A stretch of DNA of 50,916 nucleotides from Acidobacteriota bacterium (GTDB lineage: Bacteria > Acidobacteriota > Thermoanaerobaculia > Multivoradales > JAGPDF01). The notes beneath the pieces were generated by a model that was given only the letters and a program-made list of their open reading frames with translations, had not been told where the DNA came from and did no database searches. The stretch is taken from assembly GCA_017860005.1 (NCBI GenBank), contig JAFNAE010000003.1, positions 1-50,916 of the forward strand, read 5' to 3'. Made by a program: the position numbers and the translations under genes. Shown here one piece after another: positions 6,535-11,861 of the stretch (the first letter of the stretch is position 1; each line of letters begins with the position of its first letter).

Positions 6535-8994
6535 GTGAGACGAACCGCCACCACCGAATGCCGTCGACGACGCTGGCGAGAGGCGGCTCGCATCGCGGCC
6601 GTCGGGGCTGTGGCCTGCGCTCCGATTCTCCTCGCGCTGCGCGACCTCCTGCCCGATCTCGCCGCCCGCGTCGCGCCCCGCAACGCCGATGTCCGCCTCG
6701 TCGTCTTCCTCCTCGACTGGGGCGCCGAGCGGTGGTCGGCGGGGCTCGGGGGCTTCTGGGACGCGCCCTTCTTCTTCCCGACGCCCTCCACGATGACGCT
6801 GTCCGAGCACCTGCTGCTGCCCTCCGCGCTCGTGGCGCTGCTGCGCGCGGCGGGCTCCACCACCGTGGCCGGCTACAACCTGCTCCTCGTCGCGAGCTTC
6901 GCGCTCACCGCGGCGGCCGTCTACGCGCTGCTGCGCGGTGCCGTGCGCGCCCGACCGTGGTGGCTCGCGATCCTCGCCCTCGCGGTCGTGCATGCGCCCT
7001 GGCGCTGGGGCCAGCTGCCGCATCTCCAGATGCTGTGGGCGCCGGGACCGCCGCTCGCGATGCTCCTGTTCGACCGCCTTCTGCGGCGGCCGCGGCGCGG
7101 ACGGGCGTCGGCCTTCCTTCTCGCCTACGCGATCACCGTGCTCTCCGGCGGCTACCTGGCCTATTTCACGCACGCCGCACTCTTGACCACGGTCCTGCTG
7201 CGCTGCGCGCGCCGGGCCGATCGGCATCGATGGGCGGCGCGGTGGAAGCCGCTCGTCGCCACGCTCCTGCTCGGCGCCTCGCTCACCGTTTCGATCTACC
7301 AGCCGTACCTGGCGGCGAGTCGCCAGCTTCGCCTGAGCCGCAGGGCGACAGAGGTGGAAGCGCTCGGCGTACGGAGCGCGGATTGGCTCTCGCCGTCCAT
7401 TCTGAACCGGTACTCGGGGCCGGCCCTCCGATCCTGGTGGCGACCCGAGGGCGACCTCTTCCCGGGCTTCCTGCTCGGCTTCGGAACGGTCGTCGGGCTC
7501 GCCGGGCTCGCTCTCGGCCCGCGGCGGGGCCGCCGGTGCGCGCACCTGTCCGTGCTCGGACGGGCGCTCGTGGTCTCGGGCGCTGCGCTCGCCGTGCTCG
7601 AGAACGGACCGGTCTTCGCCGGTGTCGCGAAGGTCTTGCCGGGGCTCGCGGGCCTGCGCGCGCCGACGCGCCTCCACTTCTTCGTCCTGCTCGCGGCGGC
7701 GGTCCTCACCGGTCGCGCGCTGGCCACCGTGCGGCGGCGATCGGGCTCGCGTTGGGCACCGCGCATCACCGGGCTCGCCGCGCTCCTCCTGCTCGTGCCG
7801 GAGGTCTGGGTTCGGCCGCTGCCTCGCTCCGACGGGCTCGAGCCCGAGCGCGCCGGGCAGCTTCCGGCCCACGTGCGATGGCTGGGCTCTCATCCGGTTC
7901 GCGCCGTCGCGCACCTGCCGTTCGTGGACGCGCACGTCGAGGCGGCGAGGATGTGGAGGACGCGCTTTCACCGCCGACCGATCGCCAACGGGTACAGCGG
8001 CTATCTGGCGCGGTCCTTCCTCTACTTCCGCCACGAGTGCCGCGCGCCGCTGGGCGCGGTCTCGGCGCGCTGCCTGGACGCGCTCGAAGCGCTGGGCGTC
8101 TCGCACCTCGTGGTCGAAGACGCGTCGCGGGGGCTCGAACCGGGCGACCTCCGGGGGCGGCTGGCGGCGGCGCTGAGGAGGGACGCGAGGTCCCGCCTCA
8201 CCCTGGAGTTCGCCGACGACGAAGCCCTCGTCCTGGCGCTGCGGGCCAGCGACGCCCGCACGCTGCGCTCAACGACGCCGCAGCAGCAGGAGCAGGATCG
8301 GGCCGGCGACGAACCCGGCCAGGTGGGCGTACCAGGCGACGCCGCCCGCGGCCGAGCCCGGGGGCGCCAGGAGCGCACCGGTGAGCTGGAGCGCGAACCA
8401 GCCGGGGATGAAGAGGAAGGCGCGGCTGCGCAGGGGCAGGACGAGGCAGCCGACGGGGAGCACTCCGGTCAGGCGGGCGCGCGGGAAGAGCACCAGGAAG
8501 GCGCCGAGCACGCCGGCGATGGCGCCCGAGGCGCCGACCAGCGGCAGCGCCGAGCGCGGCGTGGCAGCGATCTGGGTCAGCGACGCGGCCAGCCCCGAGA
8601 GCAGGTAGAGAGCCAGGAAGCGCGCGCGCGGCAGCCGGCCCTCGACGTCGTCACCGAACACGAGCAAAAAGGCGAGATTGCCGAGCAGGTGGATCCAGCC
8701 CGCGTGCAGGAAGAGCGAGGCGAGGAGCCGGAACGGCAGCGCGAGCGGCTCGGAGAGCGCGACCACCTCGGCCGGCGAGATCGCCACGCGCGCGAGCGCG
8801 GCGCCGGCGCCGGGACCGAGCGAGAGCTCCCAGGCGAAGGCCGCGGCGTTGGCGGCGGCGAGCCCCCAGGTCGCCAGCGGCGCCCGCCGGCGCTTCTGCG
8901 CGTCGCGGATCGGGATCAAGCGCGCCGGCCGGAGCGCTCCGCGACGCGGTGGATGCGCAGCAGGTTGGTGAGCGGTCGGTCCTGGATCGGATAG
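6535..8994 (+). CDS. Polytopic membrane protein, probable GT-C (YfhO-like) glycosyltransferase; plausible part ends near 8280, remainder is antisense read-through
   Basis: Many TM segments; D..LVVFLLDW..FWDAPFFFP..TLSEH loop and C-terminal NGYSG motif; no in-frame stop until 8994. Confidence 0.6.
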   Translation: MRRTATTECRRRRWREAARIAAVGAVACAPILLALRDLLPDLAARVAPRNADVRLVVFLLDWGAERWSAGLGGFWDAPFFFPTPSTMTLSEHLLLPSALVALLRAAGSTTVAGYNLLLVASFALTAAAVYALLRGAVRARPWWLAILALAVVHAPWRWGQLPHLQMLWAPGPPLAMLLFDRLLRRPRRGRASAFLLAYAITVLSGGYLAYFTHAALLTTVLLRCARRADRHRWAARWKPLVATLLLGASLTVSIYQPYLAASRQLRLSRRATEVEALGVRSADWLSPSILNRYSGPALRSWWRPEGDLFPGFLLGFGTVVGLAGLALGPRRGRRCAHLSVLGRALVVSGAALAVLENGPVFAGVAKVLPGLAGLRAPTRLHFFVLLAAAVLTGRALATVRRRSGSRWAPRITGLAALLLLVPEVWVRPLPRSDGLEPERAGQLPAHVRWLGSHPVRAVAHLPFVDAHVEAARMWRTRFHRRPIANGYSGYLARSFLYFRHECRAPLGAVSARCLDALEALGVSHLVVEDASRGLEPGDLRGRLAAALRRDARSRLTLEFADDEALVLALRASDARTLRSTTPQQQEQDRAGDEPGQVGVPGDAARGRARGRQERTGELEREPAGDEEEGAAAQGQDEAADGEHSGQAGAREEHQEGAEHAGDGARGADQRQRRARRGSDLGQRRGQPREQVESQEARARQPALDVVTEHEQKGEIAEQVDPARVQEERGEEPERQRERLGERDHLGRRDRHARERGAGAGTERELPGEGRGVGGGEPPGRQRRPPALLRVADRDQARRPERSATRWMRSRLVSGRSWIG
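8269..8919 (-). CDS. Rhomboid-family intramembrane serine protease
   Basis: (M)IPIRD start (TTG, overlapping pyk stop as TTGA), FLHAGWIHLLGN, catalytic GASG and AHLAG. Confidence 0.9.
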   Translation of the reverse strand: MIPIRDAQKRRRAPLATWGLAAANAAAFAWELSLGPGAGAALARVAISPAEVVALSEPLALPFRLLASLFLHAGWIHLLGNLAFLLVFGDDVEGRLPRARFLALYLLSGLAASLTQIAATPRSALPLVGASGAIAGVLGAFLVLFPRARLTGVLPVGCLVLPLRSRAFLFIPGWFALQLTGALLAPPGSAAGGVAWYAHLAGFVAGPILLLLLRRR

Positions 8995-10409
8995 CCCATG
9001 AGCAGGATGATGCACTCGCCGGGCCGGATCAGCCGACGGATGAGCAGCTCGCGCTCGACCACCTCGATCAGGTCGTCGCGGTGCTGGACCTCGCGCTCGA
9101 GGCGGATCGGCCGCGTCCCCCAGAGCAGCTGGATGCGGCGCGCGACGCGCTCGTCGGTGGTGAAGACGAGGGTCGGCACCACCGGCCGGTAGCGCGCCAG
9201 CCGCCGCGCCGTGAAGCCGCCCTGCGAGAAGGCCACGATGAGGCTGCCGTCCAGCTTCGAGGCCGCGTGCACCGCGGCGTCGGCGACCACGTCCGCGATC
9301 TCGATCGCGCCGCCCGCCGCCAGGGCCTCGGGATCGCGTCGCGAGGATGCGGCGAGCTCGTCCGCGGCGGGCGCGGGCTCGGACGGCCGGGCGCCGTCGG
9401 CGAGCTGCTTGAGCCGGTACGATTCGGCCTCGACCACGATCCGGGCCATGGTGCGCACGGCTTCGACGGGGAATCGCCCGGCGGCGGTTTCGCCGGACAG
9501 CATGAGCGCGTCGGCGCCGTCGAAGACCGCGTTGGCGACGTCGGAGGTCTCGGCGCGCGTGGGCCGCGGCTGGGCGATCATCGACTCCAGCATCTGCGTG
9601 GCGACGATCACCGGCTTGCCCGCCCGGCGTCCGGCGGCGATGATGCGCTTCTGCAGCACCGGCACCTGGTGGAGCGGCACCTCGACGCCGAGGTCGCCGC
9701 GCGCCACCATCACCGCGTCCGCCGATGCCACGATCTCGTCGATGTGCTCGACCGCGACCGCCCGTTCGAGCTTGGCGACGAGCGGGATGTCGTCGCCCAG
9801 CGCGCGCACCGCCGCGCGCAGCGCCTCGACGTCGCGCGCGCGCCCGATGTAGCTGCCCGCCAGGTAGTCGGCGCGCTCGGCGACCGCGAAGGCGAGATCG
9901 GCGCGGTCCTTGGCGGAGATCGTGAACGGGATGCTCGAGTCGGGGAGGTTGATGCCCTTGCGCGTCGAGACCGAGCCGCCGTCGACCACGCGCGCGGTCA
10001 CCCGGCGCGCCGACTTGGCGAGCACCTGCAGGGCGACCAGCCCGTCCGCGATGAGCACCCGTTCGCCCTGCTGGAGATGGCGCAGGAACCCGGGGTCGTC
10101 GACCGGGAGATCGACCTCGCCGGGGTCCGCCCCCAGCGTGACGCGCTCGCCGCGGCGCAGGAGGCGGGGCTCCGCGAGCGCGCCCAGGCGGAAGCGCGGG
10201 CCCATGAGGTCGAGCAGCACGGGGACGTGCTTGCCGAGCTCGGCGGAGACGCGGCGGATGGTCTCGATCGTGCGCCGGTGCCCGGGGTGGTCGCCGTGCG
10301 ACATGTTGAGCCGGAGCACGTCGGCGCCGGCCCGCAGCAGGCGGGCCAGGACCACCTCGTCGGACGAGGCGGGGCCGACCGTCGCGACGATCTTCGCGCG
10401 TCTCTCCAT
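8916..10409 (-). CDS. pyk: Pyruvate kinase
   Basis: KIVATVGPAS, RLNMSHG, KGINLP, AKLE, VMVARGDLGVE, VATQMLESM..PRPTRAE.SDVANA. Confidence 0.97.
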   Translation of the reverse strand: MERRAKIVATVGPASSDEVVLARLLRAGADVLRLNMSHGDHPGHRRTIETIRRVSAELGKHVPVLLDLMGPRFRLGALAEPRLLRRGERVTLGADPGEVDLPVDDPGFLRHLQQGERVLIADGLVALQVLAKSARRVTARVVDGGSVSTRKGINLPDSSIPFTISAKDRADLAFAVAERADYLAGSYIGRARDVEALRAAVRALGDDIPLVAKLERAVAVEHIDEIVASADAVMVARGDLGVEVPLHQVPVLQKRIIAAGRRAGKPVIVATQMLESMIAQPRPTRAETSDVANAVFDGADALMLSGETAAGRFPVEAVRTMARIVVEAESYRLKQLADGARPSEPAPAADELAASSRRDPEALAAGGAIEIADVVADAAVHAASKLDGSLIVAFSQGGFTARRLARYRPVVPTLVFTTDERVARRIQLLWGTRPIRLEREVQHRDDLIEVVERELLIRRLIRPGECIILLMGYPIQDRPLTNLLRIHRVAERSGRRA

Positions 10410-10433
10410 GGGGCCCCTGACAATACGGGAAAT

Positions 10434-10514
10434 CCGGTGTCAGAGCACCGGTTTCCGCTTCGCTCGCCCGCGGGGAGACCGGTCGGCGTCGAGAAACCGG
10501 TGCTCTGACACCGG
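10434..10514. repeat. Perfect 22-bp inverted repeat, each arm itself palindromic (REP/REPIN-like or twin operator)
   Basis: CCGGTGTCAGAGCACCGGTTTC (10434-10455) and its exact reverse complement (10493-10514), 37-bp spacer; each arm contains CCGGTG-N6-CACCGG. Confidence 0.92.
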
Positions 10515-10538
10515 TTTTTCGGTAGGCTCGCGGGCCGG

Positions 10539-11861
10539 ATGTTCGAGGGGCTGAGCGAGAAGTTCCAGGAGGTCTTCCGCCGACTCCGCGGCGAGGGGCG
10601 GATCACGCCGGAAGACCTCTCCTCTGCGCTGAAGCAGATCCGCCTCGCGTTGCTCGAGGCGGACGTCCACTTCCGCGTGGTCAAGGAGCTGCTCGCGCGC
10701 GTCGAGGCGCGCGCGCTGGGCGAGAAGGTGCTGGAGAGCCTGTCGCCGGCCCAGCAGGTGATCGCGATCGTGCGCGACGAGATGGCGGCGACGCTGGGTG
10801 GGGAGGATGCCCGCGAGCTGCGGCTCGACGGCGCTCCGGCGGTGGTGCTGCTGTGCGGACTCCAGGGTTCGGGCAAGACCACCACGGCGGGCAAGCTCGG
10901 CCGGCGCCTGGCCGGTCGCGGCAGGTACCCCCTGCTGGTGGCGGCCGACCTCCAGCGCGCGGCCGCGGTCGAGCAGCTGGTCCAGGTCGGCCGTGCCGTC
11001 GAGCTGCCCGTCCTGGTGCCCGACGAGGGCGAGCCGGTGGTGGAGCTCGCCCGTCGCTCCCTGCGCGAGGCGCGCGAGCGGGGCCGCGACGTGGTCCTGA
11101 TCGACACCGCCGGACGCCTCCACGTCGACCAGGCGCTGATGGCCGAGATCCGGGCCGTGGCCGACGCCGTGACCCCGGACGAGATCCTCTACGTCGCCGA
11201 CGCGATGACCGGGCAGGACGCCGTGCGCAGCGCCCAGGAGTTCGCGCGCGTACTGCCCCTGACCGGGGTGCTGCTGACCAAGCTCGACGGCGACGCGCGC
11301 GGCGGCGCGGCGCTCTCGGTGCGCGAGGTCACGAAGGTCCCGATCCGCTTCGCCGGCGTGGGCGAGAAGCCGGAGGATCTCGAGCTCTTCTCGCCGGCGC
11401 GTATGGCCTCGCGCATCCTGGGCATGGGCGACGTGCTGGCCCTGATCGAGAAGGCCCAGCAGGCGGTCGACGCGCAGGAGGCGGAACGGCTGGCCGAGCG
11501 GCTGACCAAGAGCGAGTTCACGCTCGAGGACCTGCGCGACCAGCTCAAGGCGGTGCGCCGGATGGGACCCCTGCGCGGGGTGCTCGACGCGCTGCCCCGC
11601 GTCGGCCCGATGAAGGGCCTCGACAAGCTCGGCGACGTCGACGAGAAGCGGGTGGTGCGCACCGCCGCGATCATCGACTCGATGACCCCCCAGGAGCGGC
11701 GCGCGCCCGGGATCCTGAACGCCGGGCGCAAGCGTCGCATCGCGCGGGGCTCGGGCACCAGCGTGCAGGAGGTCAACCAGCTGCTCAAGCAGTACCTGCA
11801 GATGCGCAAGCTGATGAAGGGCTTGCGCGGCGGCTGGCTGCGCAAGGCCTTCGGCCGCTGA
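10539..11861 (+). CDS. ffh: Signal recognition particle protein
   Basis: ALLEADV, GLQGSGKTTT, DTAGR, DAMTGQDA, TKLDGDARGG, RILGMGD, M-domain RRIARGSG. Confidence 0.97.
   Translation: MFEGLSEKFQEVFRRLRGEGRITPEDLSSALKQIRLALLEADVHFRVVKELLARVEARALGEKVLESLSPAQQVIAIVRDEMAATLGGEDARELRLDGAPAVVLLCGLQGSGKTTTAGKLGRRLAGRGRYPLLVAADLQRAAAVEQLVQVGRAVELPVLVPDEGEPVVELARRSLREARERGRDVVLIDTAGRLHVDQALMAEIRAVADAVTPDEILYVADAMTGQDAVRSAQEFARVLPLTGVLLTKLDGDARGGAALSVREVTKVPIRFAGVGEKPEDLELFSPARMASRILGMGDVLALIEKAQQAVDAQEAERLAERLTKSEFTLEDLRDQLKAVRRMGPLRGVLDALPRVGPMKGLDKLGDVDEKRVVRTAAIIDSMTPQERRAPGILNAGRKRRIARGSGTSVQEVNQLLKQYLQMRKLMKGLRGGWLRKAFGR

Follow-up and report, generated by a model that had tools for sequence, protein, structure and literature searches.

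The palindrome pair between pyk and ffh

The stretch of DNA analysed here (the window, 50,916 nucleotides (nt) of contig JAFNAE010000003.1 from the Acidobacteriota assembly GCA_017860005.1) carries a pair of inverted palindromes centred between the start codons of two divergent genes, pyk (pyruvate kinase) and ffh (signal recognition particle protein). The locus raises the question of whether such a symmetrical arrangement is a control device dedicated to the two genes or a copy of a mobile repeat. The analysis showed that the feature is very probably one doublet of repetitive extragenic palindromes (REPs), approximately 89 bp long (10430-10518) and similar to a REP doublet forming hairpins (REPIN), which would have been spread by a transposase of the REP-associated tyrosine transposase (RAYT) type and inserted between the presumed native promoters of the two genes. 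It is an ordinary kind of element and not a dedicated control switch.

The two arms at 10434-10455 (CCGGTGTCAGAGCACCGGTTTC) and 10493-10514 formed a perfect 22-bp inverted repeat of exact reverse complements, and each arm was a hairpin of its own (CCGGTG, TCAGAG loop and CACCGG, with a 6-bp stem). The midpoint of the arms, (10434+10514)/2 = 10474, was also the midpoint of the pyk and ffh starts, (10409+10539)/2, and both sides showed the same order of arm, 8 nt, TAnnnT-type hexamer, 10 nt and ATG. The repeat with its palindromic arms, the dyad axis and this layout had been described in an earlier note on this DNA, and all of its coordinates were reproduced. A repeat search showed that the inverted repeat was extendable to 49-nt arms with 80% complementarity (10407-10455 / 10493-10541). 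The core 18-mer had three matches in the window at ≤3 mismatches compared to 0.13 expected, and none of 100 shuffles reached three. The predicted fold of the 99 nt from 10425 to 10523 was a single long hairpin as DNA (-39.6 kcal/mol, z -8.0) and likewise one long hairpin as RNA (-67.9 kcal/mol, z -8.3).

Dispersed REP family in the genome

The genome searched was a metagenome bin of 3.28 Mb in 319 contigs with a GC content of 73.8% and a completeness of 90%, so that the unit counts are lower bounds. The 18-mer was present in nine exact copies, and 40 copies were found at ≤3 mismatches compared to 15 for the reversed control. With the conserved 12-mer ACCGGTGTCAGA at ≤1 mismatch, a total of 41 units were found compared to 4 for the reversed control. 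Among these, 32 units were paired as 16 inverted (+/-) doublets, of which 15 spanned 44-87 bp and one spanned 256 bp. The other nine units were singlets; six or seven of them lay within approximately 320 nt of a contig end, where their partners may be unassembled, and the singlet on contig C193 looked like a chance match.

The consensus of the 37 units with full flanks was gAAACCGGTGTCAGAGCaCyGgTTtcc, with a 10-bp stem and a TCAGAG loop. Each unit was a 26-nt hairpin whose 5' half was nearly invariant and whose 3' half was variable (CACCGG, CACTGG, CCCTGG, CACCGT and others), and the conserved halves faced outward in the inverted doublets. The 16-mer AAACCGGTGTCAGAGC from the invariant 5' half occurred 26 times, one occurrence being at 10502-10517 in the right unit of the pyk-ffh doublet, and ranked 11th of all 16-mers; the top 25 were all low-complexity GC-rich words except for this 16-mer and one overlapping REP word. 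No common length was found among the spacers of the 16 doublets, and by eye their sequences differed as well. Between partner arms, the variable halves shared 140 matched positions compared to 119.3 ± 6.0 under random pairing (11 of 10,000 permutations reached 140), and by this likeness of partner arms the doublets behave as units.

Gene positions around the doublets were called by a proxy from codon-position GC (GC3 ≥0.85, GC1 > GC2) and not from annotation. With these calls, 10 of the 16 doublets lay ≤40 nt past a gene 3' end, four of these 10 being between convergent genes, and two lay between divergent starts (the pyk-ffh copy and one on contig C214). No open reading frame (ORF) was overlapped by 13 doublets, two overlapped an ORF end by 19 nt and one (contig C86) was inside an ORF. 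The units were mostly extragenic.

RAYT-type transposase beside a REP unit

A search of the genome with the Pfam Y1_Tnp profile produced four places, the best of which was a 227-aa ORF on contig C206 (23670-24353) that scored 43.7-45.5 bits against a cut-off of 23. Its top NCBIfam match was NF047646 (REP-associated tyrosine transposase) with 69.3 bits over profile positions 1-146 of 146, and its best PDB match was TnpA_REP of E. coli (4ER8, E 9.7e-6, residues 1-140). The HVH motif, Tyr and Asn of the protein aligned with H59-M60-H61, Y115 and N119 of 4ER8, and the position of H123 in TnpA_REP was a Gly; the residue roles were taken from excerpts of PMC3479197. A search with the protein showed that the gene is single copy in the genome. 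A REP unit was located 120-147 nt past the transposase stop, 2 nt from the contig end, and a degenerate GGGTGTCAGACC was found approximately 140-155 nt upstream of the start. The commonest 16-mer of the downstream flank was the 26-copy REP word, and the commonest of the upstream flank occurred only twice. Both the genome-wide count and the search for a RAYT gene had been proposed beforehand in the earlier note, and the 41 units and the Y1_Tnp gene beside one of them bear out its suggestion of an uncatalogued REP family with REPIN architecture.

The degenerate upstream sequence (C206:23512-23580) sits in the final codons of the preceding ORF, which was transhydrogenase beta-subunit-like as judged from its translation. 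The C-terminal tail of this ORF may be read from inserted sequence.

Repeat and transposase in related genomes

A total of 40 relatives were compared, 13 from the same genus, 11 more from the same family and 16 from the same order. The REP motif (15-mer, ≤1 mismatch) had 37 matches in this genome compared to 0-1 per relative, with 0-2 for the controls, and the REP family was judged from these matches to be found only in this species among the genomes searched. Transposase homologues (E 1e-10 or better) were present in 28 of 41 genomes including its own; of the 13 same-genus genomes, 11 had one. The closer homologues were 42-59% identical, and distant homologues with 42-54% identity were found in Planctomycetota, Sphingomonadales, Elusimicrobiota, Acidobacteriota and others.

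At 8 of the 11 transposase loci examined in relatives, the two flanks shared inverted repeats of 13-31 nt, and the remaining three had 11-nt repeats at the same offsets. Across the 11 loci the repeats lay approximately 70-160 nt upstream of the transposase gene, with GGTGACAG, GGGGACAG, GGGGACAC or TCGGTCAGAG as heads. The flanking repeat was dispersed in three relatives, with 48 copies in G005, 59 in G012 and 49 in G001, and had 15 copies in G004, all within approximately 50 kb. The controls for these counts were 0 in all four genomes, and the words of the relatives were absent from this genome. The lineage is taken from these sequences to carry pairs of REP and tyrosine transposase in which the REP sequence differs between species groups. 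Distinct REPs beside transposases that are 42-59% identical in species of the same genus provide material on how the specificities of REP and RAYT change together.

In G004, the copies of the repeat, GGGGACAGCATACGGAT, were all located in C2:1439952-1490619 as a local cluster rather than dispersed, and the cluster included two RAYT homologues (1449304-1449903 and 1455537-1456187).

The pyk-ffh spacer in relatives and a probable origin of the symmetry

The ffh gene was found in 41 of 41 genomes, and pyk was divergently adjacent to it in 16 of the 29 relatives' loci retrieved. The REP motif was found in the pyk-ffh spacer of 0 of the 16 relatives sharing this divergent arrangement, a comparison that had also been proposed in the earlier note and that favours a REP. 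The short spacers were 38 nt in G013, 60 nt in G009 and G020, and approximately 44 nt in G006 if an internal CAT is the pyk start. Relatives had AGGATA (TATCCT when read along pyk) 8-11 nt from the pyk CAT, as compared by eye. On the ffh side, the ATG was preceded at a distance of 10-11 nt by GATAGGCT, GATAAGCT, GATAGACT, GATAGCCT or GATACGCT in G013, G009, G005, G001, G012, G002, G010 and G006. In a MAFFT alignment, the ffh-proximal block was the one part of the spacers that aligned well, and the pyk-proximal boxes were those compared by eye. In G013 the two boxes were just 5 nt apart (AGGATA-GCTGA-TAGGCT), and the gap between boxes was 5-28 nt by eye in the three relatives measured (G013, G006 and G009).

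The -10-like boxes were assigned by their conservation in relatives and not by a match to the sigma-70 consensus. From this conservation we infer that they act as promoters, and that pyk and ffh would have native near-leaderless promoters back to back with the element inserted between the boxes. The symmetry combines a symmetric native promoter pair with a palindromic insert; with a short gap and both boxes spared, a palindromic insert must fall within a few nt of the midpoint. Both boxes are probably needed. The exact centring is then a mild coincidence, with a chance that we estimate from the gap lengths at about 1 in 6 to 1 in 16. The argument of the earlier note that random insertion would not be expected to give exact symmetry fails, as the boxes approximately 10 nt from the ATGs are native and conserved in relatives, and the gap between them is 5-28 nt in the three relatives measured.

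Unrelated inserts were found in the pyk-ffh gap of other species (G001 and G012 each had approximately 520 nt, G010 had 991 nt and G040 had 706 nt), which indicates that the gap tolerates insertions. The ffh box was retained despite the insert in G001, G012 and G010. The spacer provides a natural series (no insert, a possible single REP, doublet, and larger inserts in other species) for the effects of insertion on packed divergent promoters.

The insert of approximately 520 nt upstream of ffh in G001 (L015) and G012 (L014) contained a tandemly repeated GC-rich unit of approximately 65 nt and an unusually AT-rich, CT-rich tail (TCTTTGTCTTTCCCTTC...), with the ffh box GATAGACT kept. On the opposite strand, the 991-nt spacer of G010 (L026) had room for a small gene or two.

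Doublet and possible single-REP form in contigs from other studies

In 15 listed runs from several studies, half or more of the words sampled from 10200-10750 were present, and four of these runs were compared. All four were DNA contigs and not raw reads; runs marked as RNA contained at most 0.33 of the sampled words. The doublet was present with 0 differences in three runs from three other studies, X2 (833-nt contig, window 10200-10523), X3 (136-nt contig, 10388-10523) and X10 (124-nt contig, 10400-10523). These contigs were joined to pyk at the left, and separate overlapping contigs ran from 10494 into ffh. Contig breaks at the arms are expected of repeats in a de Bruijn graph. The fourth run, X5, had a depth of 0 over 10409-10503, and its poor coverage of the doublet gave no evidence either way. 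The doublet is not an assembly artefact, because contigs of three other studies carry the same doublet.

An alternative joint from 10430 to 10494, which omits 63 nt, was found in X3 and X10 alongside the doublet form. The joint was in a 770-nt main contig with a depth of 6.07 in X10 and in a 72-nt contig with a depth of 2.38 in X3, where the depths of the doublet branch and the joint (5.7 + 2.38 = 8.1) summed to nearly the 8.4 of the flanks. With this joint, only one REP unit would remain between the two flanks. A polymorphism of single and double REP in other samples is a lead, seen in contigs only and with 29 nt on the shorter side of the joint. If real, it could result from deletion between the direct repeats AAnCCGGTG, which exist because each arm is itself palindromic; alternatively, the single unit may be the older state.

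Proposed mechanism and weighing of the explanations

By analogy with IS200/IS605 elements and TnpA_REP of E. coli, the REP units would form hairpins when single-stranded, and the single-copy HUH/tyrosine transposase of RAYT type on C206 would recognise and cut or join them. Indirect signs of such mobility are the orthologous spacers of the relatives, which lack the element, and the possible polymorphism of single and double REP. One copy would have inserted in the few nt between the back-to-back near-leaderless promoters of pyk and ffh. As the doublet would be upstream of both presumed transcription starts, it would be in neither mRNA. If expression were affected at all, this would be incidental and at the DNA level, for instance by moving the boxes from approximately 5-28 nt to 97 nt apart. 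The boxes here are 97 nt apart, and both promoters have identical upstream sequence. Co-option of the doublet would go beyond such a by-product: by separating the formerly overlapping promoters (from ~5-28 to 97 nt) and giving them a shared, cruciform-capable upstream sequence, it would have relieved or retuned their competition. We consider this improbable; if it were true, single- and double-REP alleles would be expression variants under selection.

Several points weigh against a REP doublet spread by a RAYT-type transposase. No conserved 5' GTAG or CGTC tag was found in or outside the consensus of the 37 units. The NF047646 score of 69.3 was under the equivalog cut-off of 80. A good REP unit was present on the downstream side of the transposase only, the upstream one being degenerate, and the contig end hides the full flank. 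The copy number of approximately 40 is modest, in an assembly of 319 contigs with singlets near contig ends. Finally, the doublet spacers were mutually unrelated by eye, which fits REP dimers with variable spacers and fits less well a doublet copied in one piece.

The other explanations account for part of the observations. Dedicated regulatory DNA under selection for joint control of pyk and ffh, either twin operators bound by a regulator that is a dimer or tetramer or a cruciform that depends on supercoiling, would agree with the exact symmetry about the midpoint of the starts and with the very stable predicted hairpin (z about -8). A protein bound to the arms or a cruciform could also affect both promoters, since the arms lie 8 nt from both -10-like boxes. 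However, the sequence is missing in the spacers of 16 of 16 relatives while the -10-like boxes are conserved, approximately 40 copies exist in the genome with doublets mostly just past gene 3' ends, the gap of other species has quite different inserts (G001, G012 and G010), and the symmetry is explained by the native promoter geometry. We therefore regard it as very improbable. The earlier note had left the choice open between a REP family and operators or a cruciform co-regulating the two genes. Its REP alternative is upheld by the dispersed copies, the RAYT-type neighbour and the absence from the relatives' spacers, and its operator or cruciform alternative is not supported, given the lack of conservation at the locus and the position of most copies past gene 3' ends.

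A miniature inverted-repeat transposable element (MITE), whose arms would be terminal inverted repeats moved in trans by the transposase of a DDE-type insertion sequence (IS), was given a slim chance. As in terminal inverted repeats, the conserved halves point outward, several copies are located at contig ends as happens with the ends of a multi-copy IS, and one 256-bp element has the same ends (C181:3175-3430). Against a MITE, the regions flanking the 16 doublets showed no consistent target-site duplication by eye, and the longest element found with these ends measured 256 bp, in a fragmented assembly that could hide an IS. In addition, each end is a complete hairpin, singlets occur and the spacers appear unrelated, while a Y1 transposase gene adjoins a unit and its homologues in G005, G012 and G001 adjoin dispersed repeats of their own. 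An artefact of assembly, that is, a chimeric or collapsed palindrome, had also been raised in the earlier note and would be conceivable in a fragmented metagenome bin of 319 contigs, as palindromes can be misassembled. The contigs of X2, X3 and X10 cover 10388/10400-10523 with 0 differences and link the doublet to pyk and toward ffh, and the probability of an artefact was reduced to almost nothing. The locus is a cautionary case for scans made from sequence alone, in which a mobile palindrome between symmetric promoters mimics a regulatory module.

Comparison with described REP systems

In the description of Bertels & Rainey (2011, PMC3116915), REPs and REPINs show an over-represented 16-mer, inverted hairpin doublets whose arms are more conserved than the spacer, and a RAYT in the vicinity. 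The present family resembles that of P. fluorescens SBW25 in its over-represented 16-mer, its mostly inverted hairpin doublets and its less conserved spacer (PMC3116915), as well as in its single-copy RAYT with an abundant 16-mer in the flank and in the lineage specificity of families (PMC3116915, PMC5581495). The architecture also agrees with the flanking 16-mer that Bertels et al. used as a criterion (2017, PMC5581495). In contrast to SBW25, which has hundreds to more than 1000 units (PMC3116915), approximately 40 were found here; the GTAG head is missing, and the spacers seem wholly unrelated and not merely less conserved. The 227-aa RAYT extends approximately 85 residues beyond the part aligning to E. 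coli TnpA_REP.

A 5' GTAG or CGTC tag defines most catalogued REP families (PMC3733652), and in E. coli GTAG is needed for binding and cleavage by TnpA_REP (Messing et al. 2012, PMC3479197). The likeness to the REPs and bacterial interspersed mosaic elements (BIMEs) of E. coli lies in a hairpin repeat as substrate and in the aligned HUH motif, catalytic Tyr and Asn119 (4ER8, PMC3479197). The E. coli REPs differ in requiring the 5' GTAG guide and a bulged imperfect stem (PMC3479197), whereas here the invariant part is the 5' half AAACCGGTGTCAGAGC, GTAG is missing and His123 is replaced by Gly.

TIRYTs or TIRtrons are tyrosine transposase genes flanked at similar distances by inverted repeats lacking GTAG (Di Nocera et al. 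2013, PMC3733652). As described there, some of these terminal inverted repeats (TIRs) are self-complementary, moderately abundant and found in dimers, many contain GGGGWSAS, and as a rule of thumb tail-to-tail dimers have variable spacers. The system found here likewise has an HUH and Tyr gene beside GTAG-less inverted repeats, which may lie at similar distances, and its outward conserved halves with variable spacers fit the tail-to-tail rule (PMC3733652). The unit contains GGTGTCAG, which agrees with GGGGWSAS at 7 of 8 positions, the third base being T for G, and the flanking repeats of the relatives contain GGGGACAG, GGGGACAC or GGTGACAG. A difference is that the host here is a high-GC (73.8%) metagenome bin. 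By likeness to the published description and not by protein groups, the closest known kind would be the TIRYT/TIRtron variety of REP/REPIN-RAYT systems. The analysis adds a GTAG-less REP family with a tyrosine transposase from an uncultured lineage of 74% GC.

Features of the pyk-ffh locus

The features of the locus are given in Table 1. The pyk N-terminus is one from which relatives align at residue 1. The left REP unit contains the exact 18-mer core, which has nine exact copies in the genome, and deviates from the consensus just outside CCGG (T instead of A). Its flank ATACGGGAAATC is common to G006, which has no insert, and for this reason it is uncertain whether the element begins on the left at 10430 or at 10434. 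The 37-nt spacer was unlike the spacers of other doublets by eye, with no alignment made.

Table 1. Coordinates of the pyk-ffh locus in the window.
Feature	Position	Strand	Evidence
pyk (pyruvate kinase) coding sequence	8916..10409	-	TIGR01064, 453 bits (cut-off 306); start CAT at 10407-10409
pyk -10-like hexamer ACAATA (TATTGT on - strand)	10420..10425	-	10 nt before ATG; counterpart in relatives
Left REP unit AAATCCGGTG-TCAGAG-CACCGGTTTC	10430..10455	+	Fits consensus of 37 units
Doublet spacer, 37 nt, top of long hairpin	10456..10492		Fold prediction
Right REP unit AAAACCGGTG-TCAGAG-CACCGGTTTC (read on - strand)	10493..10518	-	Inverted; fits family consensus
ffh -10-like hexamer TAGGCT	10523..10528	+	10 nt before ATG; counterparts in relatives
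ffh (signal recognition particle protein) coding sequence	10539..11861	+	TIGR00959, 549 bits (cut-off 473)

An Rfam search of 9800-11200 in E-value mode produced nothing relevant, just a chance match to mir-718 (E 7) inside ffh, and a scan of 10250-10700 for consensus promoters and terminators found 0 of each. An intrinsic terminator was rejected, as 0 terminator-like sites (GC-rich hairpin followed by a T run of ≥5 in 8) were present in 10250-10700; the TTTTT after the right unit belongs to the extended stem. A -35 element made by the insert was also rejected, because the CTGACA in each arm is only 12 nt upstream of the -10-like box, too close for a sigma-70 spacer.

Probable second repeat system in the genome

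The three other, more distant Y1_Tnp-like matches had no REP unit on their contigs and adjoin a different repeat, AGGTGCCAGCCGMTTG. The second repeat, AGGTGCCAGCCG[CA]TTG, often had short tandem GGTGC-type repeats ahead of it and was located at C3:~6751, C43:4559-5868 and C222:40599-41852 and also on C70, C105, C163, C181, C279 and C295. It flanks the three Y1_Tnp-like genes (open frames of 333-425 aa) in inverted orientation, and on C181 and C105 it is interspersed among REP units. The AGGTGCCAGCCG-type repeat and these genes are probably a second transposase/repeat system. The motif AAGGTGCCAGC at ≤1 mismatch showed no excess in the genome (66 compared to 52 for the reversed control), and the longer form AGGTGCCAGCCGMTTG alone looks like a real second family. 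Finally, the 256-bp element at C181:3175-3430 has REP units at both ends and an inner inverted repeat, AAGGTGCCAGC...GCTGGCACCTT, and is a composite of both repeat families.

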